DNA of 63,072 nt, the filler included, from Folioceros fuciformis (Eukaryota), in the NCBI GenBank assembly GCA_049999805.1. It is 9 parts of 9 records of this genome, joined end to end, with 100 filler letters (N's around TTAATTAATTAA, not from the genome) between each part and the next. Parts side by side here need not be neighbours in the genome. Positions count along the whole stretch, not along the records: positions 20,087 to 35,149 come from JBNGIO010005720.1; 8 more parts are not named here. One strand, 5' to 3'. Position 1 is the first letter of the stretch. Each line of letters starts with the position of its first letter. The notes under the pieces were generated by a model that saw only the letters and a list, made by a program, of their open reading frames with translations, did no database searches and was not told where the DNA came from. The translations under genes and the position numbers were made by a program. Shown here in pieces: positions 18,566-58,024 of the stretch.

Positions 18566-18831
18566 TGTCTTCATTGCTTCGAGAACTTGTGTTGTCTTCT
18601 TCAATGCTACCCATATGAACCTCTGGGCTGGGTTATCTTCAATGCTACTTACGTGGTGAACTTGTTAAGCACCATGATGCATCAGTAGAATACGTCCAAC
18701 CAAGGGGGCCAGCCTGCACTTAGAATGTGTGNNNNNNNNNNNNNNNNNNNNNNNNNNNNNNNNNNNNNNNNNNNNTTAATTAATTAANNNNNNNNNNNNN
18801 NNNNNNNNNNNNNNNNNNNNNNNNNNNNNNN

Positions 18832-19351: not shown

Positions 19352-20312
19352 GTTGCCTGGTAGGATCGCAGGTAGCGTGTTGCTGGCTGTACAGCGTCTG
19401 GTAGGATCGCGGGCAGCGTGTTGCCGGTTGTATAGTGTCTGGTAGGATCACAAGGTGTAATGACCAAGGTGTAGGTAGGGGTTTGTCCCTAGCTCTTGAT
19501 TGTAAAGGATGTGTCTTTCTCTCGACCTGTCCACTCTTGTTCCCTGTTTGGACAAGTGCCGTAGGCCGGCCATGTTTCATGGCGTCTGGTAAGGTTGTGG
19601 GGAGGAGATATCCGAGGGGGTGTGGGGGGAGAGTGTGTTCACTTCTTTCTCTTCTTTGGGGTTAGTCTAGTGACTCTTGCCGGGTACGAGGAGTCAATAG
19701 GGAAGTGTAGAAGGTAGTGGTGTCATGGTTAGTTGCTGGTGTTGGTGCTGGAGTGAGAGAGCGAGTGAAGTGAGTGAGGGAAGTCGCAGATCTGAGAGGT
19801 TAGGGTTGTTGTAGTGACTGGAGTGAGTTTGTGGGCACCAAGAGAGGTGCAGCTGACTGCTGGACAACGAGGCTTGTCCTACGCCTAATCGGAGCTGGAG
19901 AGGAGCCCTCGAATCCATCATCGAGTCAATTGAGTCCGACCCTCCATCCACAGCAGCAAGGAACCCCATCGCTCCTTCGTGGGAACNNNNNNNNNNNNNN
20001 NNNNNNNNNNNNNNNNNNNNNNNNNNNNNNTTAATTAATTAANNNNNNNNNNNNNNNNNNNNNNNNNNNNNNNNNNNNNNNNNNNNCAGCTGACCGCCAG
20101 ACAGCGAGGCCTGTCCTACGCCTGATCGGAGCTGGAGGGGAGCCCTCGAATCCATCATCGAGTTGATCAAGTCCGACCCTCCATCCACAGCAGCAAGGAA
20201 CCCCATCGCTCCTTCGTGGGAACGAAACCCAATGTCTCAACGACAGTGGGATAAGTGTGGCCACTAAAGGTGGGACCCGTCGGCAATCAGTGCCCGGGGT
20301 TTTGCCTCCACA
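19352..20312 (+). mobile_element. Family X LTR pieces: two slightly different copies on either side of a gap
   Basis: Matches about 6290-7008; ends GCCTCCACA at 20312, directly abutting Copia-A. Confidence 0.85.
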
Positions 20313-21383
20313 GTTCTCATCCTCAGGCTCATTCTATAAGTGTAGGAAACCTTTCAGCTACTCAGCAAGCAGTCTTATGGCACGCACGCTTGGGTCATGT
20401 CAATCGCACAACTATGATTTCCATGAGCAAGCATGCTGGTTATCGAGAACCCTTACCTTCTTATCTGTAGGATCTGCCCCTCTGTGAGACATGTGCTTTG
20501 GCCAAACAGAAGGAACTTCCTTTTCCCAGCACACCTGCTCACAGATCTACTCAACTGCTCGAATTGGTCAATGCTAATATCTCAGGCCGCCTTCAGGTTT
20601 CTTCACTTGGGGGCATACTACTATTTCACTATCACTGATGATTACAATAGATACACATGGACATTCCCCATCCATAAGAAAAGCGACACCTTTCCTTTAT
20701 TTCAGGATTGGCTAGTCACTGTACAACGACAAACTGGTTGCCTCTTGCAACTGTTTAGGTCTGACAACGGGACAGAATTTGTTACCATTGCCTTCACCAC
20801 TTTCCTGGAATCACATGGCATTATACATCAACTTATTGTCCCAAACACGCAGCAGTAAAATGGCATTGCTGAACGTAAAAACCAGACACTTATGGGAATG
20901 ACAAGAACTATGTTATTATGGTCAAGTTTACCATCCCCATATTGGGCAGAAGCAGTTGTCACGTCCACATATATTCTGAACAGGTTGTTAACCAGTTCTC
21001 TAACCTCCAAGACACCATATAAGCTTTTCTGGAAACGTAAGCCCAACTTACTACATCTTAGGGTATTTGGCTCCAAGGCCTTCGCATATATACCTTCTGA
21101 GAAGCGACGCAAGCTTGACAACAGGTCTCAAAGCCTTATTTTTATTAGCTACAGCGAACATGTAAAAGCTTACAAGCTTATTGACCCTTCTTCATGTCAG
21201 CTTGTCCTAGCACGTAGTGTGACTTTCGTTGAACCACTGCAGCTAGTTACACAGTCAACAATTTATGACACATATTCTGGCTCAAATGTATCACCTGCTA
21301 CTCTGGAGGATGAGGATGATTCTGATGGAATTGTTTCAGTTTACCCTCTTGATGCTGATGGTGATCCAGGTGTCCCTCTTGTC

Positions 21384-21527
21384 CAGCCTGTTGCACCTCC
21401 TTTTGCTCATATGAATGCTGATCCACCAACCCAGCCTGTTGCACCTCCTTTTGCTCATATGAATGCTGATCCACCAGCCCAGCCTGTTGCACCTCCTTTT
21501 GCTCATATGAATGCTGATCCACCAGCC
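21384..21527 (+). repeat. 48-bp in-frame tandem repeat x3 (QPVAPPFAHMNADPPx)
   Basis: Only one unit is present in the sister copy at about 33399-33447. Confidence 0.9.
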
Positions 21528-23593
21528 CAGCCTGATGCCCCTGACGTCCTTGATGCACCTGCTCCACCCTCAGATGATGCAGCACGAGCACTGTTAGATC
21601 TAGATGATTTTGCAATCGTTGATGATCATGAAGACACACTACCGGAGCTTCCACTGCCAGAGGGGAATGCACATGAGTTGGAATTACGTGTAGCAATCGA
21701 CGCTCCTGTGGTAGCTGCCCCCGATCCAGATGTTGGACTTCGACGATCTACTCGCCATCGTCCTCCACCATCTGATTGGTAGGAGCCCCGATATACACCT
21801 ATAGACTTTCGGCAGCACACTGCTCATGTTGTCATAGCTTCCATCCCTATTGTCCCACCTGAGCCTTCCACACTAAAAGAAGCATTCACAGGTCCGGATA
21901 GAGAAAAATGGACGGCCGCTGTTGATGACAAGTATAACAGCCTGATGAAAAATGGGACCTGGCGTCTCGTCCCTCGACTTGCAAACCGCAAACCTATCAC
22001 CTGTAAATGGGTTTTTAAGCACAAATTAAATGCAGCAGGGGAGATTGCTAGGTATAAAGCACGCTTATGTGCTAGAGGATTTACACAAGTTTTTGGGCTG
22101 GACTACCAGGAAACCTTCTCACCTGTGGTCCGTGCTCAGTCAATTCGAGTTATCCTTGCCCTTGCAGCAGAGCACGATTTAGAACTCCAGCAGATGGATG
22201 TCTGCACGGCTTTTCTCCATGGCATCCTGGACGAAGAGTTGTACATGGAGCAGCCAGAAGGCTATGTCGATTCTGCACACCCAGACTATGTATGTTTACT
22301 CATCAAATGCCTCTATGGGCTCAAGCAAAGTGCAGAACGATGGTACAAGCGTTGTGATAAAGCATTGAAGTCCCTTGGCTTTCGCCAATGCACACCAGAC
22401 TCTAATGTACATGTTCTGCAAGATGGAGCCAACTATGTCCTTCTGGCACTGTATGTTGATGACGTTATCCTAGCTTCTAACAGCACTGACCTTCTTACCC
22501 GTGTCAAGGGTCTTCTTAGCCAGACCTTCGAGCTGACAGATAGTGGTGACCTTTGGTTCTGTTTAGGCATCCAATTACTCAGAGTTAGGTCTGAACGGCT
22601 CTTGATCATTCATCAACACAAGTACATAGCAGAAATTTTGCATAAGTTTAACATGCTTCAGGCACATCCAGCAAGTACACCTAAAGCTGTTGGGGCTAAA
22701 CTTACCCGTTATGAATGCCCCGTGATTGATGCTGATAAGGCAGATATGGCTGATGTTCCTTATCGTCATGCAGTAGGTAGCTTGATTTTTGTGAGCAATT
22801 GGACTCGCCCTGACATTCAACACTCGGTTAGTACAGTCTCCCAATTTATGGAGAACCCAGGCCGAGCCCATTGGACTGCTGTCAAGAGGATATTTCGATA
22901 TTTACGTGGAACTCACTTCTATGGCCTTTGTTACAAGCATACTGGACAGTCCCCACTTACCTTGCATGGCTTCATAGACGCCGATTGGGCTTCTGACAGT
23001 GACTCTAGGAAGAGTCTCTCGACCTATGTTTTTCTCCTTGCACAGGCTGCCATTAGCTGGAGCTGCAAGAAGCAAACTAGCATTGCATTATTTGCATTAT
23101 ATTGCATTGCATTATACTGAGGCGGTTTATAAATCCTTGACAAATGCAACTAAGGAAATCAAATGGGCAAGGTCTTTTCTTTCTGATATCGGCCAAGAGC
23201 AGTTAGGTCCCACTCACCGGCAGTGTGATAACCAGTCGGCCATTGCTCTTGTCTCTAACCCTCGGTTCCATGCTCGTACAAAACACATCGAGATACAGCA
23301 CCACTATGTCAGAGATGCTGTTGAGAGGGGAATTACCAAGGTTTTCTATGTTCCCACAGATGATAACACAGCAGACATTCTGAACAAGGCTCTTCCCAAA
23401 GACAAGCATTACAAGCATATGGAAGGCCTCGGGTTGATTGTTTACAAGCCCTACTTTCTCAAAGAGTAACTCACAGATGGGGGGTTTGAGGTCTTTAACC
23501 TCAGATACGTGGAGATGCTAGCATGCGTGTGTATGCCGATAGGGAGGGTTAGCAGCCACTTCATCGAACAGGTAGATGAATCTCAAAGCTGTT

Positions 23594-23893
23594 CTAATCA
23601 CCTGGATGCTGGTGTCTTTTCTCCTCCTCCTGTAGTCTTTTCAACAGACTGAGCAGTCTCTGTGCTTCTTGAAGGGGTCTGAGCAGGCTAGTTTCGTCGC
23701 CTGTATCCTCTGGAGTGTCTTCTCCTCTCGCAGGCTTTGCCCAGCAGAGCTGTATGTTGAAGAGAAATTTCCAGCCTCCAACCCTGATGGCGGCGCCAAC
23801 TATGTGGGTTTCATCCCACTCCTCTTCAGCTGGCTTCTTCTTGGCAGACTGCTCCTTCTGTGTCCTACTTCGCTTGGACCTTTTCGAGGGCAT
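23594..23893 (-). CDS. Antisense accessory ORF of Copia-A, unknown function, 99 aa
   Basis: MPSKRSKR...WDETHIVGAAIRVGGWKFLFNIQLCW...LLRPLQEAQRLLSLLKRLQEEE; aligns with 40394-40738. Confidence 0.65.
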   Translation of the reverse strand: MPSKRSKRSRTQKEQSAKKKPAEEEWDETHIVGAAIRVGGWKFLFNIQLCWAKPARGEDTPEDTGDETSLLRPLQEAQRLLSLLKRLQEEEKRHQHPGD

Positions 23894-24349
23894 TGTGCAC
23901 ACTAGGACTTACAACTTGGATTCCAGCGAAGATGCAAGTGATGAGGACCGCGTATGCAGCTGCAAGATTTGTAGCAATCCCCATGGCTCTCCAGCTCACG
24001 TGTCCTTGTTTGGTTATGATCGCCGCAATTCAAGTTCCCTGCGCCCGCCTCTGCCTTGTGATCGTCGTGTGCCTTCTTCATTGATGACCCCGTCCTTTGT
24101 CAATTACGCCCGGACCTCCCCAAGCTCGTTTTTTGCTTAAGGGAGGGTGTTAGGAATTAAGCCGTACTCGCTTAGGGTTAATTATCGGATTACTTATATT
24201 TAGGTTTTATTATCTAAGGGTCATCTAGTGAAGAGGCACCTAGTGCATATATAGACATACTTTAAACACTCTTTGTAATTATTCTTATCAATTGTCTTAT
24301 GTTCTTTTCTCTCCTGCTCTTCTTTTCTGGTCATGTCCAATAATTATCA

Positions 24350-25638
24350 TGAGTTGGAATCATTCAACGGGTCCATGAGGACCTGGGTCATTACGGGGTA
24401 AAGAGAACTTACAATTTGTTGTTGCCTCACTTCCATTGGAACGGGATGTATGCTCAGCTACGTGATGAAGTGGGTAAGTGTGCTCAGTGTGATCGTGTGA
24501 AAGCCTCGTTCAGCAATCCACACTCACAGTTGCATCCACTGCCCATTATGGGTTTGTTCTTCCAGTGGTCATGTGACTTGGCAAGGGAATTCCCTCAAAC
24601 ACCTAGAGGGCATGTATACATCATTGTGATGGTGGTTCATTTCTCCAAGTGGTTGGAATTGGCAGCCCTTCCAAACAAGACATCCTGTAGTACGTCACAA
24701 CCGTTTCTACACAATGTAGTCAGTAGGTTTGGAAGCAGTGCAGAATGTTTGACTGACCAAGGAGCAGAATTCAAGGGGGAATTCCAGGATTTGCTAGATG
24801 CTGCCTTGATAGATCACTAGCGCACTAGCGGGGATCACCCACAAGCGGACGGACTCGTGGAGAGAATGGTCTAGACCATCACGCAAGCTTTGCGAAAGCT
24901 ATGTCTCACTAAGCCCAAACAGAGTGGGACATGCAGCTACCCTACATCGCCATGGGATATCGGATGAGCTGTCATGCAACTTTGGCAAACTTTTTGCCTT
25001 ACTTTTTGCTATTTGGGCAGGAGCCAGTACCTCCCGTAGCCATTGAGAAGCAGATGCAGGAAGGCTTGGACTTGGACAGTCCAGCAATGTGGGCGCGGGC
25101 CATAGGAGAACAGGCAGCACTGTTTAGAAGGGTCATGCCTATGGCCATGGCCAACTTGCAAATTGCGCAACACCGTGACACTCTCCGATATGCTTATACA
25201 CGAAGTGGCAACTTCCGACCTAAGGTGCGTAAATTTCAGTTCGGCGGCTATGTGTATTTGTAGTGCCAAACGCAGGATACGCTGGAGCCGAGCACCAGTA
25301 GGCATGTTTTGCAAGTAAAGGAAGTTTGGAGCAACAGCGTGTTGGTCTTGGAGGGGGCAGACGGGCGCACAATTACAAATCACATGAAGAATTGCGCACC
25401 ATGCCACTTACCCAATTTAGGTCCAACGATCATAACAGCAAAATGGGTTCCCTCGGCGGACTACCCCTGTCAGATTTTTCAAAGGATCGATGATCCACAA
25501 CTAATGTTGTTGTGTGACCACTGTAATGGTGGTTTTCATTTGTTCTGCTTACAGCCATCGCTGACTAAAGTGCCCGACAGTGTGTGGTTTTGCCCTCGAT
25601 GCAGTGGACAAGCAGAGCTGGGACACTCTTCTACCTAA
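24350..25638 (+). mobile_element. Ty3/gypsy integrase (HHCC, DDE core) with C-terminal PHD finger, decayed
   Basis: HEDLGH...CAQC, WSCDLA, TDQGAEF, PQADGLVER; PHD CQIF...LLCDHCNGGFHLFCL...WFCPRC at 25468-25602, in frame with the integrase C-terminal region across a TAG. Confidence 0.9.
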
Positions 25639-29864: not shown

Positions 29865-32800
29865 TGTTAGGAATTAAGCCTTACTCGCTTAGGGTTAATA
29901 ATCGGATTACTTATATTTAGGTTTTATTATCTAAGGGTCATCTAGTGAAGAGGCACCTAGTGCATATATAGACATACTTTAAACACTCTTTGTAATTATT
30001 CTTATCAATTGTCTTATGTTCTTTTCTCTCCTGCTCTTCTTTTCTGGTCATGTTCAATAATTATCATGGTATCAGAGCCATGAGCATATACAATTACAAA
30101 CTTTGCTATCGTACACACTTCCGCTGCCTCGCAGGATGAGAAGCTAAGAATATAATTTCTATGAGCTAATATTTGGACAAGTAAGAAGAGCGGCTGGGAA
30201 TTCAACAGAATTCAGCACTATCTCTGGATGCTAGCTAAATCTTGTTGAAGACCCTGCTCCCCTTCCTGCAAGTCAGAGTTAGCCTAATTTCTATGGATTT
30301 TGCTACTAATGTAGAATGATTATCCAGCTGTCCAACCTGTACAGAATATTGCTGTAGTAAGCACTCTAAAAATGCCAAGGTGCAAAAATAAGCAGGCCAC
30401 AAGGCCATCATTTTCTGGTCAATTCAGACCTGATGGAGTGCCTGCAGGATATACAGCGAATGGCAATTGTCAGCAACAATCACCATCACAGCCAATTCAA
30501 CTACAAGACTGTGCACTAGTGACATTGACAGATCTTACCTGAAGAAATGATTCTGAGCGTGAGATGTATAGACCACTTCAAGATTTCTCCCGGCCAGATT
30601 CCGGATGTTCGACTAGCAGCTCGAGTTTCCAACTGTGGTGAAGAGTCACAGGCTGTTGAGGGGAATGGCACACGTGGATGTGCTTGTTCTGCTTCTGTCC
30701 AGGTCTCGTGACATTTCATACCCTACCTGTCAACCATTTTTAGGGTTAGTTCATTTAAACAATGTTTTTTGAACTCATATCCCTAACGGAATACCGTTTC
30801 GATAAGGGGGGCGGGTTTTGTGTCTTACTTACTTGTTAAGCACTTTAGCACCTCTTCACCTTAGTTGGTGCCTCCCCCTATCACATCCGCCTGTTTCCCC
30901 TTGCTGCTCAAAACATCACAGACTCTCTAGCAATGTGGACGCGCCATCCTCCCCCTCCTCCACCAGTGCCTGGATCTTTTACACATGTCTTCATGTCAAA
31001 GTTAAAAGAAAAAGACAGGTTTACTGGACAAAAATATGAGCTATGGAAGGTGAGGATGAAGTCCACTCTGCTTGCTAGAAATGTCAGGGGATATGCTGAT
31101 GGTTCTATTCCAGAACCAGCATCTACAGCAACCAAAGGAGAAAAGGATCATTGGGCACATGCTAACAGCGTATGCATGGCCCTCCTTATTGCTGGTCTTT
31201 CTGAAAACCTCCTCCCCGACGTAGAATTCCTCACCAAGGCAAGTCAAATGTGGCAACAGCTTGCTGATACTTATCAAGTGCGCAATGTCATGACGTTATG
31301 TGCACTTTGCTTAGAATTCTATGGACTGAAACTGAAAGAAGGGGATAAGGTACTTACACATTGCAACAAGTTTCGTCACTTGAGAGCTCAACTTGCTGCT
31401 GTAGGCACCAAAATGGATGAGATTGATGCAGTGGCTCAATTGCTTACGAGCCTCCCTCCCAGCTACCAGAATTTTGTATCTTCACATAATGTTCCCATTA
31501 GAACAGCAAATGTTGCTGTTGCTGCTGGACAGGCCTCTCCACTCACCCTTGACGGGGTGATAGGCGCGTTATACCAGGAAGAGCAAAGCAGGCTCATGTC
31601 AGGGTCTGGATCCAAGTCCAAAGCTGACAGTGTTTTCTGCTTTTTGTGGTAAACCATTCCAGAGGGGCAGGCCAAGACATGTGATAGGTACACATCCTCC
31701 TCGCCATGAGACTCGCCATGAGGCTGGTCCGTCAACTATTAAGCGTCAGGGCACCTGTAACTGGTGTGGTATCCCTGGACACTGGGTGAAGGAATGCCGT
31801 AAGAAGAGAGCTGATGAACCTCAGAAGGCTCCCATAACTGCATCAGCTGCCACTGTTAGAGAAAAACTCTCCAGTGTAGGTTCTTCAAAGCCAGTGGTAA
31901 AAATACTGACTGTTTGTCTTACCTCATCGACACATGACACATCTTCTTGGTTCCTGGATTGTGGAGCCACCACATCACACATTTGTCATGATGAGACCCA
32001 ATTCACCAGTCTGCAGCTCACATCAAACGTGGAGCGTGTTTACCTGGGTGATGAACACATTGACACGAGTTTACAGATCCTTGGTCAAGGTTGCTGTAAA
32101 TTCAGACTGAATGACAAGATATTCCTTACATTATCTGATGTCCTCTATGTGCCTCGTATGGCCAAAAACTTGTTATCTTTGAGCAAGTTGATGAAGACCC
32201 AATGTTTTCTTCTCCAAGTTTCAAATACCTCCTGTTGCTTCTATCGGAACTCTGCTCCGTCTATATGTGTGTTTCGAGCACATCTTGAACATGACTTGTA
32301 TCGCCTGGACATCAAATGCATCCTCAGTTCTCATCCTCAGGCTCATTCTACAAGTGTAGGAAACCCTTCAGCTACTCAGCAAGAAGTCTTATGGCATGCA
32401 CGCTTGGGTCATGTCAATCACACAACTATGATTTCCGTGAGCAAGCATGCTGGTTATCGAGAACCCTTACCTTCTTGTCTGCAGGATCTACCCCTCTGTG
32501 AGACATGTGCTTTGGCCAAACAGAAGGAACTTCCTTTTCCTAGCACACCTGCTCACAGATCTACTCAACTGCTTGAATTGGTCCATGCTAATATCTCAGG
32601 CCACCTTCAGGTTTCTTCACTTGGGGGGGCAGACTACTATTTCACTATCACTGATGATTACAGTAGATACACATGGACATTCCCCCTGCATAAGAAAAGT
32701 GACACCTTTCCTTTATTTCAAGATTGGCTAGTCCCTGTACAACGACAAATTGGTTGCCTCTTGAAGCTGTTCAGGTCTGACAACGGGACAGAATTTGTTA

Positions 32801-33530
32801 ACAATGCTTTCACCACTTTCCTGGAATCACATGGCATTATACATCAGCTTATTGTCCCATACACGCAGCAGCAAAATGGCATTGCTGAACGTAAAAACCA
32901 GACACTTATGGGAATCAGAAGAGCTATGCTATTATGGTCAAGTTTACCATCCCCATATTGGGCAGAAGTAGTTGTCACGTCCACATATATTCTGAACAGG
33001 TTGTTAACCAGTTCTCTAACCTCCAAGACACCATATAAGCTTTTCTGGAAACGTAAGCCCAACTTACTACATCTTAGGGTATTTGGCTCCAAGGCCTTCG
33101 CATATATACCTTCTGAGAAGCGACGCAAGCTTGACAACAGGTCTCAAAGCCTTATTTTTATTGGCTACAGCGAACATGTAAAAGCTTACAAGCTTATTGA
33201 CCCTTCTTCATGTCAGCCTGTCCTAGCACGTAGTGTGACTTTCGTTGAACCATTGCAGCCAGTTACACAGTCAGCAATTTATGACACATATTCTAGCTCA
33301 AATGTATCACCTGCTACTCTAGACGATGAGGATAATTCTGATGGAATTGTTTCAGTTTACCCTCTTGATGCTGATGGTGATCCAAGTGTCCCTCTTGTCC
33401 AGCCTGTTGCACCTCCTTTTGCTCATATGAATGCTGATCCACCAGCCCAGCCTGATGCCCCTGACATCCTTGATGCACCTGCTCCACCCTTAGATGATGC
33501 AGCACGAGCACTGTTAGATCTAGATGATTT
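29865..33530 (+). mobile_element. Copia-A 5' part: 5' LTR (29865-30066), PBS-Met (30067-30079), long leader, gag, protease, integrase
   Basis: 202-bp LTR nearly identical to 24148-24349 and preceded by TGAGT; CNWCGIPGHWVKEC; FLDCGATTSH; RSDNGTEF; QQNGIAERKN. Confidence 0.95.
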
Positions 33531-35149
33531 TGTAAGAAAAATAAGGAATGCTAGAAACGTGTCAAGGCATCTTGACATCGTGTGTGCAATAGCCAACAAG
33601 CAATAAGGAATAACAAAATAATGAATTGGATAAACGTCAATGAACATAGAGTTGTTTATATAGTTAAACCTAATATGCCTAGGTTAACGTTAATATACTT
33701 AACGTATATTTTTCATACTCCCACATAACCTAGGCAGTATTTAAGAACTGAATAAAACGTGCATCGCGTGAAACAGTGAGCATTATGCTTTTGAAAACGG
33801 AACGGGAAGCTCAAACAACGGGGTCTTCCACTCGCAGAGAGCAGTGCCAACACCATGTCTCAACTACTTGCCGTCGTCGCGCTCGTAATAGCTGTGTTCT
33901 GTATCATCATCCAGTGGCAAGAATCAATGATGACGAGAAGCGAAGCGTGCTACCAGCCTGTAGAAGATGAGGAGCCGAGCGCCAGAGAAGGAGGCAGAAG
34001 GAAGAAGTCTGCGCTTAGGGCAGAGCGGCGCAAGCCCAGGGAATGGAAACCTTTCAACCTGCAGCACTATTTGAGGAGCTACGACTGGGAAGTGGAGCTG
34101 GCGGTAAGTGTTACTATGAGGAAGAGGTGGTTGACCTAGGAGACATTCCTGCAGTGGACCCTCTCAGGGGCATTAGAGTGCGATGGCATGAAGCGGTCAA
34201 CACTCCGCTGCCCGCTGAAGATGGGGAAGAGGAAAAGGTTCCTGCTGAAGTTGTAAAGCTGTCTTAGGAGATGTTTAGGCTTTCACAAAGAGACAAAGGG
34301 AAAAGGACGCAAGGTTAGGTAAGGACTGTTGGCTTCATCCATGCTCCTTTTCTTGTGTGCCGAAAGCAGGAGGGTAATGACTGACTTGTAGATTGTGTTT
34401 GTGTGTGTCGCACGACACAAGTAGATAGGAAGTGTAGGAAAGTCTGTCAGCTGAGGCTGCAATCTGTAAAACCTAAATTATAAGGGGGTTTTTGAGATCA
34501 GAGGACATAGGCCCTCACCCCTCCCACAGACTCCAGGTCAGTTGTTACCTTCCAAGTAGGTGGCTGAAGTCTTTAAGTCCAAGCGATTCCATGTGCAATC
34601 TGTGCTTCAGCTTAGGCAGTGCTTTTGTCAAGATATCGGCTGTGTTCTCAGCAGTGGGAACATATGCCAGTTGGATAACTCCTCTTGCAACTGTGTCTCT
34701 GATATAGTGGTGCTTGATCTCAAAGTGTTTCGTCCTTGCATGAAATCTTGGATTGGTGACCAAGGCAATTGCGGAAATATTGTCACAGCGGAGGATTGTG
34801 GGTTCCAGCTGCTCAACATGAAGATCCTTAAGATAAGCACACTCCCACGCAGCCTCCTTTGCAGAATCAGTAAGAGAGATGTATTCTGCTTCAGTGGAAG
34901 ACAACGCAATTGATTGCTGTTTCTTGCAGGACCAGTTCACTGCAGCACCAGCTAATAGAAAGCAGTATGTGGAAAGACTCTTCCTAGAGTCAGAATCTGA
35001 AGCCCAATCAGTGTCCGTGTATGCAGATAATTGAAGACCTGAAGGTGACCCAACTTGATAGAAGAGTCCAATTGTCATGGTACCCTTGAGATAGCGGTAA
35101 ATCCGCTTCACAGCTGCCCAATGCACACGTCCAGGCTTCTCCATGAACT
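33531..35149 (-). mobile_element. Copia-C 3' part: RT end and RNase H (34545-35149), 3' region, 3' LTR (33531-33715)
   Basis: YTDTDWASD, SSTEAEY, RCDNISAI, TKHFEIKHHY, ADILTKAL; minus-strand LTR TGAAAA...CTTACA preceded by GTGGGAGTA. Confidence 0.9.
33855..34267 (+). pseudogene. Antisense ORF(s) in the Copia-C 3' region with an N-terminal hydrophobic helix
   Basis: MSQLLAVVALVIAVFCIIIQW...RRKK...EWKPF...LRSYDWEVELAVSVTM, plus an overlapping acidic frame ending at 34267. Confidence 0.45.
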
Positions 35150-35249
35150 NNNNNNNNNNNNNNNNNNNNNNNNNNNNNNNNNNNNNNNNNNNNTTAATTA
35201 ATTAANNNNNNNNNNNNNNNNNNNNNNNNNNNNNNNNNNNNNNNNNNNN

Positions 35250-36149: not shown

Positions 36150-36640
36150 GATGGCTTAGAAAGAAGCAATCAGTTGAAAGAAACAACCAGTTGTTACACG
36201 CTCTTTAGTCAAGGCTGAATACATTGCTCTATCTATGGGGGGAGCCGACATCTCATGGTTTAAACAACTCCATCCAAGTTTTCGTCGACAACACGAGCTC
36301 AATTGAGCTAGCTCATCGACTTGGTTTTCACCCTCAAACTAAGCACATACCCATCCATTTTCATTATGTGCACGATTTAGTCAACTAAGGCATGATTCAG
36401 ATCTTGCACCTTTGCACCCAGGCGATGGTGGCGGACATCTTCACCAAGGCGCTCAGTGGCGCAAAGTTTACATAATATCTTTTTGTTTAGTTCTTGGTGT
36501 TGGTAAGTAATTTTTACTTGAAGGGGGATTTGGTAAGTAACTTGTGCTTGAAGGGGGAGTTGGTAAGTAACTTTTGCTTGAAGGAGGAGTATTAGAGATT
36601 CAATCCTTTGCTACTTACACTAGCATATTAGGAATAAACT
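36150..36640 (+). mobile_element. Old copia RNase H remnant with a triplicated PPT unit
   Basis: KQPVV...AEYIAL, TKHIPIHFHYV, ADIFTKAL; 30-bp TGGTAAGTAA...TTGAAGGGGGAG x3 at 36501-36590. Confidence 0.8.
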
Positions 36641-37048
36641 AGGATATTGCACTATCGAAACTAGAGCTTATCTCCTCGATATTTGCCCCCGCCCAAGGCC
36701 TATATATGGAGCACCTTGTGCACCATATTGGGTGGTACTGTGCAGCCCTGTTATACACCAGTGGTGTTATTGTGTGTGCCATCCATTGCCTCTGCTTAAG
36801 CGCTGTGCGTTCGATCTCGGTTTGGCAGAGTGTCGACGTGCAAGACGCGCCTGCTTCCTTCTCGATGTGCATCGCCGCTGTCCAAGGAAGTCGTGCCGAT
36901 TTCCGAGCCGCGTGACTTCGCGGCTTCCCGTCTTTCGGACAAACTACATACATAGCAGTATTGCGACTAACCACGCGATCGCTGTAACACATACTTTAAA
37001 TGCTAGCTCGACAGCGGGCTGGTGTTGGTTCGTCTTCAGTGGTTGTGG

Positions 37049-37089: not shown

Positions 37090-37263
37090 GGTTAAAATTT
37101 ATTGCTAAAGCGACAAATAAGTCGTAGTCAACAAATAATTCTTTGGGGCCAACGCAATTCTGGTAGACTCATCAGCTTATGTGTGGAATGAGCGTGCCTC
37201 TCTGTGGGAGGAGGCTTGCTTTGCTGAGTTGCTCTTGGAGCGTCCTTCGGTCGGGACGTGAAG

Positions 37264-38761
37264 ATGGAGCTGCTGGCGAGCGCGCTGTGGATGCCAGTGC
37301 TTCTTGCAGCTTTGGGATTGATTATAACCGTGGCATCTGCCCCGCTACAGGCTGATTTCTGGAACTGCAGTCCCTTGCCGCTGTGGAATAGTTCCGTGAC
37401 TGGCGATCTCAGGCCCAACTGCTGCTCGCTGGAGGCGCTGATGCGGAAGCCCGAGCCGCTGTACAAGACATGGCAGCAATACTTAGATCAGAGCGGTCTT
37501 CGGGATAGGCCAATGCGAGTGCGTCCAGCTGCGCATCTCATCGCAGACAACGAAACATACCTGCAGCAGCTGGACCTGGCATACAGGCTGCACAAGGCGC
37601 TTCCAGACGCCGACCCAAGGTCACAGATTTCGCAGATGAACTTCCACTGCCAGTATGGCGCTCCTGGCGTGTTGCACCAGGCTGGCAATGAGTATTTCAA
37701 CTACCTCGTCCACAACAATTGGTATTTCTTCCCTTTCCACCGCTGGTAAGCTCTAAGTGGGTGTATTTGCAGCTCAAGTCATGCGGTCTGGCATTGCTTT
37801 TAATATTGCAGCTGGGGATGCGGATTCCGTCTCACCCTGGCAACCTGGCCTCGGCTGAAAACTAGGTTCACCTTCTTCTTCGAGAGGATGCTGGCCAAGT
37901 TGGTGGGCGATGAATCCTTCGTTCTGCCTTTCTGGAACTGGGACAATCAGAGCGCCGACTTCAAGCACCTTCCCAACACTGTTCCCCACTATTACCGCAA
38001 CCCTGACAAGTACCCAGGTCTGTATCACAAGTATCGCGATCCTCGTCACCGACCTGAAGCGGAGCCCGCAATCATCAACCTCATTCGCGCATCCGTCGCC
38101 TCAGGGTTTTCTCCCACGACGGCGCAGGAGGTAGCTCAGGCTCGGGTACTCAACAAGGCGCACCTGCGAAGCTTGATCGTCGACCGCACCGCCAACGGCA
38201 ACATAGAAAACTTCCTCTCAGACCCGATACGATTGGGAGAGACCACTGACCGCGACCGTGAGAACTGGAGACTTGGATTCGAAGCGCAAGCGCATTTGGC
38301 TGTGCATGACTGGATGGGAGACCCGGCTTATTCATTCGCGGATATGGGGTTGGTTTACCATGCTGTTCGAGACCCGATATTCTTTGCCCACCATGCCAAC
38401 GTTGACAGGATATGGAAAGTCTGGACGGTGGGTTGCAAGTAATGAAAGCAAGGATGGACGACAATCATCAATCAATCAAATTTCGACCCTCCCATGTGAG
38501 ACTGACACTGTTGACATGTGCATTGTTCAGGGACTCGAGGGCAGGCGCAACTATGACGACCCCGACTTCCTGGACGCTACCTTCTACTTCTACGATGAGA
38601 ATGCGGAGATTGTGAGAGTCACCGTTGCTGAGTGTCTCAATTCTGACCTCCTGAAATACACCGAACAAGACGTGGAGAACGAGTGGGTGACGTATGAGGC
38701 ACCAGCCGATTCAGCCCTTCTCCTCGGCGACCCATCTCCAGCACGTTCCGAAGCATGGTGA
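37264..38761 (+). CDS. PPO: Polyphenol oxidase (type-3 copper); exons 37264-37745, 37866-38427, 38531-38761; 424 aa
   Basis: Signal-peptide-like N-terminus; RVRPAAH; DPRS..QMNFHCQYG; VHNNWYFFPFHRW; LPFWNWD; EAQAHLAVH; RDPIFFAHHANVDRIW; DPDFLDATFYFYDEN; two GT-AG introns preserve the frame. Confidence 0.92.
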
Positions 38762-39958: not shown

Positions 39959-41962
39959 TGTGCAAAACACCAGCGGAGGTGAGAGAATAGCAAAAGCATA
40001 AAACAGAACAATAAAATGAGAGTACAAAATCGTTTAAATACTTTCTAAGTGACTGTTCATATTGCAACCTTAGATAGCTTAACATGTGTGTAAGGTTTAA
40101 CTAAATCATTTATTCTTATCACCCCCTCTTAAATTAAACACTGTAAGCTTAGATGACCTTCACGTAAAACCCTTAACGCAGAAAACCACGAGGAGTTGCT
40201 GCTCGTGAGGAGAAGGCCATTGTGTGGCTCGCATGCACGCTCAGTACACGGTTGTTGGGAAGCAATCATCCATCTTCTGTCCTGCATAGGAATCCCACTA
40301 GCTCTTAAGGATGGCCACCAACATTTGCTGCTCTCATTGCACAAAACCCAGCTCTTAATGTTTGCCTGCATCCAGCTGCTAAGCTTTCTGATCATGGAGA
40401 CTCGGAGAGGAACTGATCACGGTGCTGGCAACCGTAGAATCGGCAGGCGGCGCAAGGTGCAGTCCACAGAATCTGCCTTGAGCTCGGCATCCACGCAGGA
40501 GGAGCCAAGCACGGGCTGGTCATGGGAGGGGCGCAACTACACCGGCCAGCGCATTTGCGCAGGAGGCTATCACGTGGAGCTCAACATTACACTAGTTTGG
40601 GGACGTGTGTGAGAAGGAGAAGAGATAAAGCTGCCCAAGGAATCTTTAGGAGCAAATGGTGAAGATGGCCTCATCAAGCAATTGGAGAAAGCTACAGCCT
40701 TGCTGGAGTTACAAAAGAAGAGGCAATATGAAGAGTAGGGCTGCTGTGAAGGAGGCAGCCAGGCGATTAGGTAGAAATTTTTGCTTCATCCGCCTACTGG
40801 TCCTTTTAGCTCTTGTGTATTCAGCCTGTCTGACCTGATTACCTACCCACTTGTGTGTGCTTGTGCAGAACCTGGACGCCAGGGAGTGAGGAGCATACAT
40901 CATAAAATCTGGAAGCACGACTTCCACCCCCCTTATACCAAGATTAGTGCACATCACTGGTCAAAATAGATAGAAAAATCATGAAGTCCTAGGCCTTCCA
41001 TGTGTGTGAAATGCTTAGGTTTAGGCAGTCCCTTGGTCAAGATATCTGCTGTATTCTCATCTATCAGGATGTAATCAACCTTAACAATCCCTCGTTCCAC
41101 AACATCTCATATGTAGTGGTGTTGAATTTCAATGTGCTTTGTTCGTGCATGATGTTTCGGCTTGGACACTAATTCCAGTGCACCTGTATTGTCACAGAGG
41201 ATAACGGTAGGCTAGAGCTGCTTTTCGTTGAGGACAGCGAGGAAGGTTCTCTCCCACTCAGCTTCCTTAGAGGCCTCCGTCAGCGATTTGTACTCCGATT
41301 CGGTGCTGCTGAGGGATATGGAAGCTTTGCTTCTTGCAACTCCAGGTTACAGCAGCATTGGCCAGCAGAAAACACTAGGTTGAAAGACTGCGATGGGAGT
41401 CAAAATCGGTGGCCCAATTTGCATCTGTGAACCCTGTAAGTGTAAGCTTGGAATTTCTGCTTTGTTTGTACATAAGCCCATAACGATGTGTGCCCTTTAG
41501 GTAGCGAAAGATGCGCTTCACAGCTACCCAATGTGGCCTGCCAGGATTCTCGAGAAACTGTGAGACAGTGCTCACTGAATATTGGATGTCTAGCCTGGTC
41601 CAGTTGGCCACGAAAATCAAACTGCCGGTAGCATGTCGATAAGGTACATCAGCCAAGTCTTTTCTGTCAGCTTGTGTTTCAGGGCACTGTTCTCGCGTGA
41701 GCTTGACTCATGTTGCATATGGTGTAGCTGCTAGGCATGCTTGGTCTAGGTGAAACTTGTGCAAGATCTCATCAACATACTTGAATTGGTGGATGTACAT
41801 GAGGCCCTCGGAGCGGACTCGCAGCAACTGGATGCCAAGGCAAAACTTGAGCTCACCAATATCCTTCATGGTGAATTTGCTGGAGAGCTTGGCCTTGACA
41901 TCTGACAACAGCTTCTGATCATTTGTGGCAAAGATCACGTCATCCACATAAAGTGCAAGAAG
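39959..41962 (-). mobile_element. Copia-D 3' part: RT and RNase H (decayed), 3' region, PPT (40122-40130), 3' LTR (39959-40121)
   Basis: LYVDDVIF, FTDANWATD, TKHIEIQHHY; minus strand AAGAGGGGG then TGATAAG...GCACA. Confidence 0.9.
40394..40738 (+). pseudogene. Antisense accessory ORF of Copia-D, one internal TGA
   Basis: METRRG...WEGRNYTGQRICAGGYHVELNITLVWGRV*EGEE...LIKQLEKATALLELQKKRQYEE; aligns with 23594-23893. Confidence 0.65.
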
Positions 41963-44900
41963 TGAAAATAGATATATATATAAATATCTAACTATACATA
42001 TATAGATAGGCGTACAGGTCCTAGGTTAAGTGACCTAGTAATGGTAATAATTGTCCGTCGCATACACATGACACCGGAGTGTGTAACTACCATAATGTAT
42101 TCAACTATCTTTGGACCTACTATCGTGACCGCGTCGCATCTGATGATTGTCATGGTATCAGAGCGGGAATCTTCCCGATTCCTGGTCTGATTTATCCAAA
42201 TCTGTTCTTCCTGCGCTGCGCCACGATTTCTCCATTTTTTCTTGAGGTTTTGCTGTGTGTGGCGGCATTCTTTTTCTTATTACTCTGTTCCTACCTCATT
42301 GTTTCGACTACAATTAGCAGCAACGATGCATCCTGTGCGATTTCTTGAGGTCGGAGCCCTGCTATCCAGTTGGTGCTGTTGCTGCAAATGCGTTCTAGCT
42401 CCCCATTGTGGACAATGCTCCAAACAGCCCAACGAGTCAGCAGCCATGCCTGGCCTCCGAAAACACCTGAGGTTAGCACGAAGAGCACAGAGACAGCGGG
42501 AATTGCGTGTGTGGATGAAGGAGCAAGATGACCTTTGCCTGAAAACTCTCACATCCACACGCTGGGATCAAGTATGGATAAAGATTTGTATAATCCTTGA
42601 CCTAATGGCAACCAATGCCTCTCAAAACTTTCCCATTCTTGATGGTTATGATTGGCGCACGTTTGATGTGTCTGACCTTGCTTGAACAATATGCTGCTTT
42701 CCGCTAGTAGAGAGATTCTTTACCTGCACTTTCCTATTCAAGCACAAGATGCACGTCAGCATCTTTATTACCATCTGGAGGAGCTATTTTTAAGGGTGAA
42801 GGAGCCGGAGCTTGAACACATACTTAGAGAGTATGCATCTCGTATACTCCTGCACATCAGCAATGAGTATCCGCTAAGTGTAACACAAGCATTAAAAGTT
42901 ACCTTAGATATATGTTTCGGAACAAGCCTTCCGCCTTCCTATAAGGCGAAGGGGATTGCCCTGAAGCCCTAGAGGGCACAGACAATCATGGCCCAACAGT
43001 CAATAACCTCAACTCCTGCAGCTAACTTCATCCCAAAGGAAGACAAGTTTGATGGAGAAAACTATCATGTGTGGAAAAGAAGCATTGAGGCAATACTCAA
43101 GTCGAGCAAATTGTGGGCCCATGTGAATGGTGTAGGCACACCCCCAGTGCCTACACCTAAGCCTTGCCCTGGAGCAACACCAGAAGCAATAACAAAATGG
43201 GACGAAGATGAGCAAGTAGCCCAAACCCTACTGCACTTCAGCACACATACTAGCGTTTTTCAAGGCCCCGAAGACAGTGCAGCTGCTCGGTGGAAACAAG
43301 TCAAGCTCCTGTATGACTCAAGGGACCTCATGCTTCAGACATATGTTCTCAAGCAATTCATTGGCCTAAAAATGAAGAAGACAGCCCCTGTAGACAAACA
43401 TGTACTCGATTTTTGCAATGCAAGAGCGAAAATGGTGTCAGCAGGGTTCCAGCTTGAGGAGGAGCTTCTTGCCGTTATCCTCCTCACTACCCTTCCAGAG
43501 ACCTGGACAAGTGTTGTTCAAGGCCTGCAGGAGGCGAGGCCCATATCTGTCACTCGAGTTATAGCAGCTATGCTAACCGAGGAGTCTAGAAGAAAAATGG
43601 CAAATAACTCTATCTCCCCTGGAGGAGATAGAGCTATATGGACAAGTAAACCTCGAAGAGGAAGAGGATGTGGGCGTCCTTTCATTTGAGGCAGAGGTAG
43701 AGGCAGAGCCCTGACCCCGAGACCTCCTGTTTTTGGTAGCACAAAGCCTCGACCTTCATGTGGTTACTGCGGAATGAAAAACCACACATGGGAAGTTTGC
43801 CGGAAACGCCTTACAGTTGAGGGTAGCCACTCTTCTGGTCACCTTGCAGTCACAATGCAAGAATATAGTCATGCCTTCTGTACCAGTGTAATTTCAGACC
43901 CCACAGACTCTTACACCTCCAAGAAGTGTAATGTTGCCACCTGCTATGTGGGTCAGTCGGAGCATACTTGGTACATCGACAGTGGCGCTTCCCAACACAT
44001 GACACCCCATGCTGCATATTTTACAAACATCTATGAGAGCATACCTGGCAAGTTTGTATGTCTCTGTGATAATTCCCAGCATCGTATAGAAGGCCAAGGT
44101 ACTATCCGGTTCGACTTGCAGCTCAAACAGCATCTAGAAATTCCAGATGTCCTCTATGTACCTGGCCTCGCTAAGAATCTGGTCTCCGTCAAAAAGATCG
44201 ACCAATCAGGGTGCTATGTGTGTTTTGGTGATGGGAGAAGAAGGACGGCACTCTCCTCGCTACAAGGCATCTGCAAAAGGATGATTTATATCACTTAGAC
44301 CTCCTCCAGGAAAAAGCCTATGGAGCATCAAACAACTCACATTTTGTGAAGCCTTCATTGACGTACCTTTGGCACCTACTCCTGGGACACGTCAACTTCC
44401 AGAAGCTCGTGGCCATGTACAAAAGTAAATTGGTGGATGGCATTACTCTTGACAGCCTCGACGACTTTGGAGTCTGTGAGGCTTGTGTCTTTGGGAAGCA
44501 CAAGCGAAGTGCCTTTCCTACAGGACAAGCAACACGAGCCACTGCAATTTTAGGCCTTGTGCATAGTGATGTTTGTGGCAAACTACCTGTTTCTATTGGC
44601 GGCAAGCAGTACTTCACTACGTTTATTGACGACTTTTCTAGATTTTGTGTAGTCTACTTGTTGAAACACACGACTGAGACCTTTGCTTATTTTGTGGAGT
44701 ACAAAGTGTGGGCAGCGAATTTTAAAAATACTGAGGACTGACAATGGTGGCGAATACCTGTCTAGTGAGTTTGATGCATACTGTTGTCAACATGGCATAA
44801 GTAGGCAGCTGACAAACACGTACACCCCTCAACAGAACAGCGTGTCGGAGCATAAGAATCAGGCTCTTGAAACTTCTGCATCCAGTATGCTTCAGTATGC

Positions 44901-54050: not shown

Positions 54051-56986
54051 AATTGCTACTCATCAGCTTCAAGCTAATCTCTGGCATGCACGATTAGGTC
54101 AGGTTAATAAATCAAAGTTAGATCTAATGTCGTCATCCAGCTGCTACAGAGAACCACTACCTACATGCTTTAAGCATTTTGACATTTGTAGTTCGTGTGT
54201 CTTGTCTAAGCAAAAAGAACTACCCTTCAAGAACAAATCAGCTACAAGGGCTACTACAGTGTTAGAGCTCATTCATGCAGATGTGGCTGGAAAACTTCCT
54301 ATTAAGTCTCTTGGGGGAGCTGAATATTATCTCTCTCACGGATGATTACTCCCAATATACTTGGACATTTCCTCTGAAGTTGAAAAGTGATGTTTTTGAG
54401 ACCATTGCCTCCTAGATCACAATGGTTCAATGTCAAACAGGAAAATTAGTCAAGTGTTTTCAGACAGATAATGGAGGAGAATTTTCAAGCTATAAGTTTG
54501 ATCACGTGTTTCAGCAGTCTGGTATTACTAGGCAGTGGTCTATTGCATATACTCAGCAGCAGAATGGGGTTGCTGAACGCAAGAATCAGACACTCATGGG
54601 AATGACAAGAAGTATGCTTTCATGGGCCTCCTTGTCAAAAGTTTTCTGGGCAGAGGCTGTTGTGACGGCGACGTATATACTTAATCGAGTGATTACTTCA
54701 GCTCTTCTAGGAATGACACCATATGAAGGTTTCTGGGGAAAGAAACCTAGCCTTCTTCATCTTCGAGTCTTTGGCTCCGTGGCATTTGCATATATCCCTG
54801 AAGCCAAAAGAGGGAAGTTAGATGATAGGGCAAAACCTTTAATATTCCTGGGGTATTCTGAGGAGTCTAAGGCTTATAAGTTGTATGACCCATGTACATC
54901 AAAACCAACCTTATCACGCAGCTGCACTTTCAAGGAACTTTCTGCTCCTAAGTTGTCTGCTGATTCAGATGGAGCCACATCTCCTTTGCCTGAAGACCCT
55001 CCTCTGGATCCTCCCTATATATACCCTGCTTCAGATGGAGATCCTCCTTCAATTCAAGAACATGAGGACGCTGATCAAGCTGTTCTGACTAATGGATACA
55101 TTACTGAAGATGAACAGATTTAGGAAGTGTTAGCTGAAATACCTCCTACCCCTAACCTATATGCAGACGATTTGCATTCTTCTGGTTAGGATGATGAGGA
55201 TGGTCCTCTTGTTGTAATGAATGACGATGGTCAATCCACATGAGGTTCAGAAGATGTGCTATCTAATTCTGATTCCTATGGAGGTGATCCTGCACAAGTG
55301 GTTTCAGATGAAGGTCAATCAGAAACAAGATATCCAACTCGTGAGCGACAAACAAGGGAAAATTGCTTGGAACCACCTTATCAAGCTCATGATTTTCGCT
55401 GACATGCTGTTAATGTCTTGGATCTTCATGTCCCTGATGTTAGACCAGGTCCACAGACATATTCAGAGGCTCTGAATGGGCCAGATGTAGATCACTGGCG
55501 GAAATCTATACAAGACGAGTATGACTACCCTATCAATAATCGAACCTGGGAACTTGTTGACCTACCAGCAGGAAGAAAACCAATTAGCTGCAAATGGGTC
55601 TTCAAGACCAAGTTGAAGTCTGATGGAACTATTGCCCGCTACGAGTCCAGATTAGTAGCTAGGGGGTTTAGCCAGATACCTGGAATAGACTACGGTGAAA
55701 CGTTTTCTCCAATAGTGAAGCCCCCTTCCATACACATTTTGTTGGGAATGGCTGCTGAGTACGACTTGGAGGTGCACCAGATGGATGTGTGCACCGCCTT
55801 TCTTCATGGTTTACTTGAGGAGACTCTGTATATGCAATAGCCAGAAGGGTTTGTTAGTAAGAAGGACCCTCAAAAAGTGTGCCACCTGCTGAAGACTATC
55901 TATGGATTAAAGCAAAGTCCTCAAGCTTGGTATAAAAGAATTATCAAGTACCTCTGCAAGCTGGGTTTTCTTCAAAGTCCAGCTGATACCAATGTCTTCT
56001 ATCTGTCTTCAGGAGCTTTGTTTGTCATCCTAGCTTTGTATGTCGATGACTGCGTATTGCTCAGCAATGACCTAGGCCAGATGGACAAAGTCAAAGACAT
56101 GTTAAGACAAGAGTTCGAAATGACTGACCAGGGGGAACTCCAGTTTTGTTTAGGAATACAGATTCTTCGAAACCAGACAGCTGGTTAGATCATACTCCAT
56201 CAAACCAAATACCTTAAGGAAATATTGAAACGCTTTAATTTGGATGCAGCTTGCCCCGTTTTCACAACATCAGCTGTGGGGGAGAAGTTGACATAAGCTA
56301 TGTCACCTCAGAGACCTAATGAGGTTACAAACATGAGTCTTGTCCCTTACGCTGAAGCTGTGGGTTGTTTGATTTTTCTTGCCAATTAGACAAGGCCCGA
56401 CATTAGTTATGCAGTCAACCAGGCCTCTCAGTTCCTCAAACAACCTGGACGATTACACTGGGCAGCTGTTAAACGCATATATAGATATCTTAAAGGAACT
56501 CTCTCATATGGTCTACACTACACGTTCAATGGGAGCAATAGTTTAACACTTACTTCTTATGCCGAGGCCGACTGGGTGTCCGATGCTGACACTTGAAGGA
56601 GTTTGTCGGCATACTGCTTTGTGCTGTCCTCAGCATCTGTTAGCTGGAGCTATAAAAAACAGTCCTCCCTTGCACTGTCCTCTACTGAGGCAGAGTACAA
56701 AGCTCTTACAGATGCCTGCAAGGAGGCTGAATGGCAACGACAGTTCTTAGAGTCAGTTAATCAAACTTAGAAAGGGCCTACTTTGCTTCACTGTGACAAT
56801 CTGAGCAGTATAGCTCTTGTTTCTAATCCTAGGTTTCATGCACGTACAAAACATATCGAACTATACCACCACTATACATTATATTAGGGATGTAGCAGAA
56901 CGAGGGGCAATCAAGATGCAGTATATCAACACTCATCAAAATCCAGCAGACATCTTCACAAAAGGCCTCTCAAAGGCCAACCATTT

Positions 56987-58024
56987 TGTGGAGTGATTTC
57001 TTGCACCCAAGAACCACCCAAGGGGCCACACATCCCCCTATTGTCGTTGCAGTCCTATGGTTCGCTCCCAAGGGAGTGAATTAGTGCCAAGGAACACTAC
57101 CTATCACACTTCTACCTATCAGCCGGTCTATAGGTCTGTCCATACACTCACAACAAAAGGGCTAGAAGCCTAGCCTCCCCCCTAAGTCAGCTCACCCAAC
57201 TCACACTCCTGTTCTTCAATCCTCCAGCTCTTCTTGATTCCCACCTCAGCCACTTCCTCCTTACTTCAGTCCTCCAAGATTTCTACTTCAGTCACTTTCT
57301 CCCTACTTNNNNNNNNNNCTCCCTACTTCAGTCCTCCAAGATTTCTACTTCAGTCACTTCCTCCTTACTTCAGTCCTCCAAGATTTCCACTTCAACACAC
57401 ACTCCTACTCTTCAAGAGCTCACTCTTCACTTCTATGCATTCCACTCCAACTCTTCCTCTCTTTTCTTTAGCTCTTCCCCCCTGGAAATTAGAGCACAAT
57501 GGCTTCACTTCTTGCAGCCTTCAAGCATAGTGTGGATCTAGGACTGGATAGCCCTTCAGCTCACGGTCCTGTTCCTTCACTTCAGCCAACCTGCGATTCA
57601 TGTAGCCCTTGCGGATCCGGCCACACGGATCTTGACAGCCCCGGGATCCCCACGTTCCCCTAGTGGCAAGGGGAATCAAGACTTTGGGTTGACCTCAAGC
57701 GGCTCAGCGCCCTAAGCCAGGAGTTCTACCCACAAAATCCGGGGACCTCACACCATAGACCGCCCCCCCCTTCAATGGCAGGCCTCTCCTCTTGTACCCT
57801 CACCCTCATCTCTCTCTCTGACTTAAACCATCCTACATCCGGTTGTGACCTAAACCTAACCTCAGTCTGACCTAACCCTAATCTAAGCCGGACCTAGACC
57901 TAACCTCAATCTGACCTAACCCTAATCTAAGCCTGACCTAGACCTAACCTCAGTCTGACCTAACCCTAATCCTGATCGCAGCCTAACCAAAGCCTAACTC
58001 TAACCTACCCCTGCACCTAATTGC
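56987..58024. mobile_element. Family Z long LTR, partial, inserted at the end of Copia-F pol
   Basis: Starts TGTGGAG; shared subterminal motif at about 57026-57076; short internal repeats at about 57250-57395. Confidence 0.7.
57847..57972. repeat. 44-bp CCTAA-rich tandem repeat, about 3 copies
   Basis: GACCTAGACCTAACCTCAGTCTGACCTAACCCTAATCTAAGCC units at 57847, 57891 and 57935. Confidence 0.9.

Follow-up and report, generated by a model that had tools for sequence, protein, structure and literature searches.

A candidate antisense accessory gene between pol and the 3' LTR shared by two diverged Copia families of Folioceros fuciformis

Does the short reading frame that lies antisense between pol and the 3' LTR of a Copia element in Folioceros fuciformis encode a protein, and is this protein shared by different Copia families? 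The original prediction compared the frame of one element (Copia-A) with that of a second (Copia-D) and proposed a selected accessory protein conserved across different Copia families, possibly nuclear and with a speculative anti-silencing role. We analyzed the two frames in the window, i.e. the whole stretch of 63,072 nucleotides (filler included), which is composed of nested and truncated transposon pieces. A gap pattern of 44 N, 12 bases and 44 N occurs nine times in it (e.g. 18732-18831, 19987-20086, 35150-35249; the starts include 1395, 5631, 18732, 19987, 35150, 48903, 58025 and 61377) and interrupts several elements, the 5' part of Copia-A among them; it has the look of a scaffolding or masking artefact. 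A plant-type polyphenol oxidase gene was also observed between Copia fragments (37228-38761, plus strand), with PPO1_DWL and KFDV domains and 36-40% identity to land-plant enzymes; it is split over three frames (37228-37749, 37804-38442 and 38207-38761), which reflects introns or frame breaks.

The host element of the frame is a Ty1/copia LTR retrotransposon, as indicated by its RVT_2 reverse transcriptase (RT), the integrase upstream, the TG...CA ends of the LTR, the primer binding site (PBS) and the polypurine tract (PPT) (Table 1). Its 3' end was located by means of a second copy: the Copia-A stretch ends with 204 bases (24148-24351), from TGTTAGGAATT to ATTATCA, that are repeated at 29865-30068 with 98.5% identity, and because the repeat in the second copy directly precedes the PBS TGGTATCAGAGCC, which we take to be the classical Copia primer binding site for the 3' end of tRNA-iMet, the Copia-A LTR was defined as 202 bp and the antisense frame is therefore internal to the element. 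The second copy has gag knuckle, Pol_BBD, gag_pre-integrs and rve matches in Pfam (31564-33603), about 780 nt between the PBS and its first long frame, and an abrupt end at about 33606, where the 3' part of Copia-C starts. A G6 run just past the pol stop was rejected as the true PPT, since the second copy maps the LTR start to 24148. Such G-rich purine runs (G6, G6 and GGGAGGGG) were observed 10-27 nt past the pol stop in A, D and C, respectively, far upstream of the real PPT, and may serve as an additional site of plus-strand priming or as an element at the 3' terminus of an antisense transcript. Three tandem 48-nt units encoding PVAPPFAHMNADPP(T/A)Q repeats are located in the integrase-RT linker of Copia-A (21383-21542, plus strand), and such units are also found in the sister copy (about 33300-33550). 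A gypsy-type integrase (Integrase_H2C2 and rve; 24353-24820, plus strand) begins within a few bases of the Copia-A 3' LTR end, and Copia-A is therefore probably inserted in, or adjoining, a gypsy element.

Copia-D has a single LTR in the window, which begins at 40121 and runs toward lower coordinates (TGATAAGAATAAATG...), next to a putative PPT whose motif aligns with the proven PPT/LTR junction of A. The two LTRs had been described as lacking obvious similarity; this has to be qualified at the junction, where the PPT and the first 15 or so LTR bases are alike (TTAAGGGAGGG/TGTTAGGAATTAA in A and TTAAGAGGGGG/TGATAAGAATAAA in D). The layout of Copia-D matches that of Copia-A, with the frame opposite to pol and between the pol stop and the PPT/3' LTR, a region that measures 669 nt from pol stop to PPT in Copia-A. 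The predicted antisense position between pol and the 3' LTR was thus borne out by the pol stops, the LTR/PPT mapping of Copia-A and the junction motif of Copia-D. Both pol copies are decayed: in the Copia-A copy, a stop interrupts pol at 21780-21782 and the frame changes near 23100, and the Copia-D copy has two stops among its last 114 codons.

Table 1. Positions in the window of the antisense frames, their host elements and the other Copia pol ends.
Feature	Position	Strand	Details
Copia-A antisense ORF, stop to stop	23594..23908	-	104 codons open (23908-23597), then TAG
Copia-A antisense ORF from the Met common to A and D	23594..23893	-	ATG at 23893; 99 codons + TAG
Copia-A ORF segment aligning with Copia-D	23621..23875	-	Smith-Waterman score 97
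Short upstream ORF in a different frame (MGIATN...FAGIQVVS...)	23865..23984	-	hydrophobic patch of the original prediction
Copia-A SH3_retrovirus, upstream of RT	20859-21779	+	Pfam
Copia-A pol, RT + RNase H part	21783..23469	+	RVT_2 E 8e-66 at 21783-23120
Copia-A pol stop	23469	+	tblastn survey of the window
Copia-A G-rich run	23479-23484	+	sequence
Copia-A polypurine tract AAGGGAGGG	24139..24147	+	directly before the LTR start; motif common to D
Copia-A 3' LTR, TGTTAGG...ATTATCA	24148..24349	+	202 bp; 98.5% identity to 29865-30066
Second Copia-A copy	29865-33606	+	5' LTR 29865-30066; PBS TGGTATCAGAGCC 30067-30079; gag-protease-integrase frame
Copia-D antisense ORF from the common Met	40394..40738	+	114 codons; in-frame TGA 40610-40612; TAG 40736-40738
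Copia-D open frame up to the TGA	40157..40612	+	same frame resumes past the TGA to 40738; start about 25 nt from the PPT
Copia-D ORF segment aligning with Copia-A	40445..40735	+	Smith-Waterman alignment
Copia-D putative PPT, sense strand TTAAGAGGGGG	40122..40132	-	motif aligned with the proven PPT/LTR junction of A
Copia-D G-rich run	40927-40932	-	sequence
Copia-D pol end	40954	-	tblastn survey of the window
Copia-D pol, RT + RNase H part	40954..41968	-	tblastn to A: 67% (RT), 61% (C-terminal pol)
Copia-B pol	55370-56987	+	tblastn survey of the window
Copia-C antisense ORF	33795-34139	+	114 codons; same relative place as the A and D ORFs
Copia-C G-rich run	34518-34525	-	sequence
Copia-C pol end	34545	-	tblastn survey of the window
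Distant Copia pol C-terminus	36287-36523	+	37% identity to A
Antisense frame after the distant pol	36639-36995	-	118 codons; beside a 152-codon sense frame

When characterizing the two frames, we observed a Met at an equivalent place in both. The length of the Copia-A frame is ordinary, an equally long frame being present in 20% of dinucleotide shuffles, and a longer sense ORF of 155 codons also exists in Copia-A (23673-24140, plus strand). The open frame of Copia-D (151 codons) exceeds 98.9% of dinucleotide shuffles, 1.1% being as long, and is moderately unusual. An intron at GTAAGT in Copia-A was considered and rejected: the motif is not kept in D, and the sole plausible GT..AG span is 48 nt long and does not join the frames.

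The relationship between A and D was found at the protein level. The Smith-Waterman score of the antisense frame pair was 97, against 50 for the best of the other 17 same-strand frame pairs, and the highest score among 2000 residue shuffles was 56 (mean 27.8, sd 4.8); in a repeat of the shuffle test, the score was 101 against a mean of 28.5 and a maximum of 64. The similarity put forward in the original prediction is thus far above chance, and it lies in the antisense frame, neither at the nucleotide level (about 47% identity) nor in a sense frame (at most 50 versus 97). A tblastn search of the whole window with the Copia-A protein returned, besides the query, D alone (E 2e-6, 29% identity over 98 aa). 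From N- to C-terminus, the aligned segment of Copia-A comprises the end of the basic region, the predicted beta-hairpin core, an acidic linker and the C-terminal Leu-rich helix. Indeed, the proposed core W-x6-G-x2-I-x2-GG[WY]-x4-NI-x-L-x-W aligns between A and D without gaps, the basic N-termini described for both proteins were recovered on counting from the common Met (K/R at 9 of the first 25 residues in A and 8 of the first 41 in D), and the C-terminal helix matches as well (LLRPLQEAQRLLSLLKRLQEEE in A, LIKQLEKATALLELQKKRQYEE in D). The upstream hydrophobic patch (FAGIQVVS versus FACIQLLS), which had been counted among the shared features, was rejected as part of the conserved protein: the stretch from Met to PPT scores 25 against a nucleotide-shuffle mean of 24.6, 43% of 1000 shuffles match this score, and the similarity to D is at chance level.

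AlphaFold2, run on the two-row alignment, produced a model of low confidence (mean pLDDT 53.7) with a disordered N-terminus, a hairpin made of residues 31-43 and 46-57 of the 104-residue frame with its turn at GG, an unstructured acidic linker, and a helix at residues 73-100, which is the best-scored part (pLDDT about 75). On numbering from the Met, the basic run of Copia-A covers residues 1-20, the hairpin core comes next and the Leu-rich helix follows at about 68-95. Self-association is suggested by the conserved Leu/Ala spacing of this modelled helix. The product is not a bZIP protein, since about 45 residues, among them the hairpin, separate the basic stretch from the Leu-rich helix, and Pfam gave no bZIP match.

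The substitution pattern was compared with that of pol, in which the synonymous sites of A and D are saturated (pS 0.82 and 0.92, third-position identity 38-39%, pN 0.24). Over 85 aligned codons of the antisense frame, identity was 46%, 56.5% and 37.6% at positions 1, 2 and 3, with pS 0.76 and a pN of 0.46 that is biased downward because the alignment had been optimised for amino-acid similarity in this frame. Third positions are as randomised as in pol, and positions 1 and 2 retain signal. The antisense ORF has changed about 2.5 times faster than pol at nonsynonymous sites (dN 0.72 versus 0.29). The codon-opposed sense frame, which necessarily mirrors part of the signal, gave pS 0.725, pN 0.471 and a score of 50, with one stop in A and three in D. 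Within the aligned segment the antisense frame has no stop in A and one in D, and the other five frames have 1-5 stops each in A and 2-5 each in D. Because the synonymous sites of A and D pol are saturated, a neutral region should have lost all similarity, and the protein similarity retained in the antisense frame argues, indirectly, for past purifying selection over at least part of the A/D divergence.

More recent changes were followed in Logan contigs from two DNA runs of one sample. At least two contig types cover the Copia-A ORF, one with about 98.4% identity and no gaps, the other with about 85% identity and 14 gaps; nine contigs from the same two runs cover the LTR start. Among the five differences listed between the contig of about 98% identity and the Copia-A ORF of the window, four are nonsynonymous, one of which alters the first Gly of the GG motif, and one is synonymous; those listed look like neutral decay of dead copies. 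A further run (X4), guessed to be RNA, contributed a single contig, which covers 44 bases of pol, and no contig over the ORF. In run X3, most changes over 21700-24400 are G>A (166) or C>T (79), with A in place of nearly every listed G of the ORF region; this run resembles bisulfite-converted DNA from the same sample, from which the methylation state of the elements could be read.

How far the conservation extends was assessed from the other Copia families in the window, in which four Copia pol C-termini (A, B, C and D) and a fifth, more distant one were found. A, C and D are about equidistant, with 58-65% identity in C-terminal pol and 64-69% in the RT-RNase H part. By eye, the Copia-C frame resembles those of A and D: it begins with 20 hydrophobic residues and also has a Met, a basic run and a stretch containing Trp. 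However, it scores 25 against A and D, less than the shuffle mean of 28, and Copia-C was rejected as a carrier of a homolog; an A+D profile did not find it either, the best matches outside A and D having E above 2. The 3' end of the distant Copia element was also rejected, neither its antisense nor its sense frame being similar to A or D. The claim of conservation across different Copia families is thus confined to A and D, which are significantly similar, and fails for the equally related Copia-C and for the distant 3' end.

Searches for relatives, which included profile searches as the original prediction had proposed, gave no homolog in Pfam, PDB, the ESM Atlas, 1.84 billion representative proteins or 80 metagenomic Copia loci. 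Pfam scans of the A and D ORFs (E up to 1, and also 0.01) returned sub-threshold noise only, and PF04195 (Transposase_28/TRP28) had no match in them at E up to 1. Among the 1.84 billion representatives there was one match (E 2e-4) and no credible homolog: the matching 1309-aa protein was judged spurious, since weak matches add up over its six internal repeats. A word-based protein search with the ORF gave five candidates, none of which scored, the ESM Atlas had no usable match and PDB sequences no match, and none of 104 pattern matches in viral contigs was confirmed. The closest pol proteins in public data have about 50% identity. Of 198 confirmed metagenomic relatives of C-terminal pol, all at most 53% identical, 80 were searched for the ORF, and the E value of the A+D profile was not below 2 and the best tblastn E was 0.45. 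A long antisense frame in two of the metagenomic loci (L054 and L047) was rejected because it is the complementary strand of gag in the neighbouring element. In Rfam, no match was found around A, and one was found around D with 19.5 bits, the gathering score being 40. Within the range of these data, the protein appears to be an orphan confined to this lineage.

Several explanations of the A/D similarity have to be weighed. Both ORFs are rich in K/R and in E and there are two sequences only, which would suit a chance match of compositionally biased frames; we consider this explanation effectively rejected, since none of 2000 composition-preserving shuffles reached the score (shuffle maxima of 56-64 versus 97-101 observed) and the two ORFs are collinear and in syntenic positions. 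A sense-strand feature, whether a cis-acting element (RNA or DNA) in the 3' untranslated region or a peptide read from a sense frame, is in our judgement very improbable: the codon-opposed sense frame is open in A (23636-23905), with a similar pS/pN and its score of 50, and A has the 155-codon sense ORF as well, but the sense frames of D contain 3-5 stops over the aligned segment, sense frames score half the antisense value, overall nucleotide identity is low, and no Rfam family matches A or D at a meaningful score. The nucleotide element or sense-strand frame that the original prediction named as refuting it thus very probably does not account for the conservation. It is improbable, too, that the A/D ancestor took up a piece of a host gene or of another element by transduction in reverse orientation and that the frame is a passenger, not an element-adapted accessory gene. 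A passenger would not stay in frame across saturated divergence, and no cellular or transposon homolog was found in Pfam or, one spurious repeat protein aside, in the 1.84 billion representatives. Nevertheless, transduction is discussed as one origin of such ORFs (PMC7264820), and the extra ORFs of plant elements are described as highly heterogeneous, suggesting independent acquisitions (PMC6317226).

A homologous relic, once coding or captured in the common ancestor and now non-functional, would have more in its favor, as would a selected antisense RNA with an incidental ORF. Both carriers are decayed elements, the D frame has an in-frame TGA, the recent differences, among those listed, are neutral-looking at four nonsynonymous to one synonymous, Copia-C has no detectable similarity, the protein is an orphan, and a regulatory antisense RNA is raised in PMC7264820 as an alternative for aORFs-3R. 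We still regard this explanation as unlikely, because a long-dead frame should keep no similarity when the synonymous sites of pol are saturated, and a function of the RNA alone would predict nucleotide or structural conservation instead of conservation in one frame and at codon positions 1 and 2. If the frame is a relic, it is a useful caution on inferring selection from two sequences. On balance we lean slightly towards a genuine additional gene of this Ty1/copia lineage, which would derive from the common ancestor of A and D, lie antisense between the pol stop and the PPT, and have been kept coding during at least part of the divergence. The proposal of a selected accessory protein is upheld in so far as protein similarity survives where pol pS is saturated, and it is weakened by the neutral-looking recent changes and the dissimilar Copia-C; because of these two observations, Copia-C being equally related, our confidence in a functional accessory gene is about one half. 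Judged from sequence comparison, the antisense accessory ORF is probably real and fast-evolving, an additional orphan within the class of antisense ORFs between pol and the 3' LTR.

If the frame is such a gene, the common ancestor of A and D would have passed on an ORF of about 100-115 codons located 3' in the internal region. Its transcript would start in or near the 202-bp 3' LTR or in the stretch of about 250 nt between the PPT and the ATG, and the predicted product would have a disordered, strongly basic N-terminus, a Trp/Gly-marked beta-hairpin of about 26 residues, an acidic linker and an amphipathic Leu-rich C-terminal helix. This small basic protein may enter the nucleus and bind nucleic acid, perhaps as a helix-mediated dimer, and may modulate the expression or replication of the element itself, as proposed for gypsy-type antisense ORFs. 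The nuclear and anti-silencing roles are conjecture. The full proposal, that the Copia lineage carries a conserved fast-evolving antisense gene, expressed from the 3' end, whose small basic product dimerises, binds nucleic acid and tunes transcription or counters silencing, is accordingly tentative, and we would call it possible but doubtful.

Grande, RIRE2 and PvRetro13 have gypsy-type hosts, unlike the Ty1/copia host found here, and the product of the antisense gene of the HTLV 3' LTR is HBZ, a bZIP protein. Previous studies established a class of antisense ORFs between pol and the 3' LTR, which includes gene23 of maize Grande and those of rice RIRE2, Silene Retand and Phaseolus PvRetro13 (PMC7264820). 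On the strand opposite to pol, past the pol stop and short of the PPT/3' LTR, the A and D ORFs occupy the position that defines this aORF-3R class. The aORF-3R or eORF-3'R described in PMC7264820 are conserved between related families; here, A and D are significantly similar, and Copia-C and the distant 3' end are not. As in that class, the frame has no clear database homolog, and the regulatory, possibly nuclear role proposed there for known members resembles the one considered above. The same source gives the functions of such ORFs as unknown, reports gene23 as nuclear and mentions an internal promoter of Grande (PMC7264820); gene23, RIRE2 and PvRetro13 were compared with the A/D ORF by description only. 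In Retand, which is a Gypsy element, 97% of the clusters encode an antisense TRP28 domain in regions of 2.9-6.6 kb (PMC11963269), whereas the frames described here have about 100-115 codons in a region of 669 nt. TRP28 is likewise antisense, lineage-characteristic and predicted to bind nucleic acid (PMC11963269), but the A/D ORF has no PF04195 match.

Among Ty1/copia elements, the characteristic case in a plant survey, which found extra ORFs of at least 250 codons in 582 Copia elements, in 45 unrelated groups, is the ORF of SIRE (eORF-3'F in REXdb), which is also an extra frame downstream of pol and belongs to a very divergent class but is in sense orientation (PMC6317226). A frame of about 100 codons would not have been scored in that survey because at least 250 codons were required (PMC6317226), and a later review states that extra ORFs are present in most lineages (PMC12786077). 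The literature that we found consisted of reviews and gypsy cases, with no account of a conserved small antisense ORF in different Copia families; reverse-oriented Copia ORFs may be listed in the supplements of PMC6317226. HTLV has an antisense promoter in its 3' LTR (PMC7264820), and its antisense gene is, like the frames described here, read from the 3' end of a reverse-transcribing element, but the A/D protein is not a bZIP. Antisense extra ORFs are widespread, functionally unexplained and described mostly for large gypsy-type elements. If our preferred reading of an additional gene is true, accessory genes also exist in compact Copia elements, transposon annotation with length cut-offs overlooks such small genes, and a short tractable protein becomes available for asking what antisense accessory genes do. 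Under the full proposal, which we consider doubtful, the frame would be a Copia counterpart, missed by 250-codon surveys, of gypsy gene23/TRP28 and of the retroviral antisense genes.
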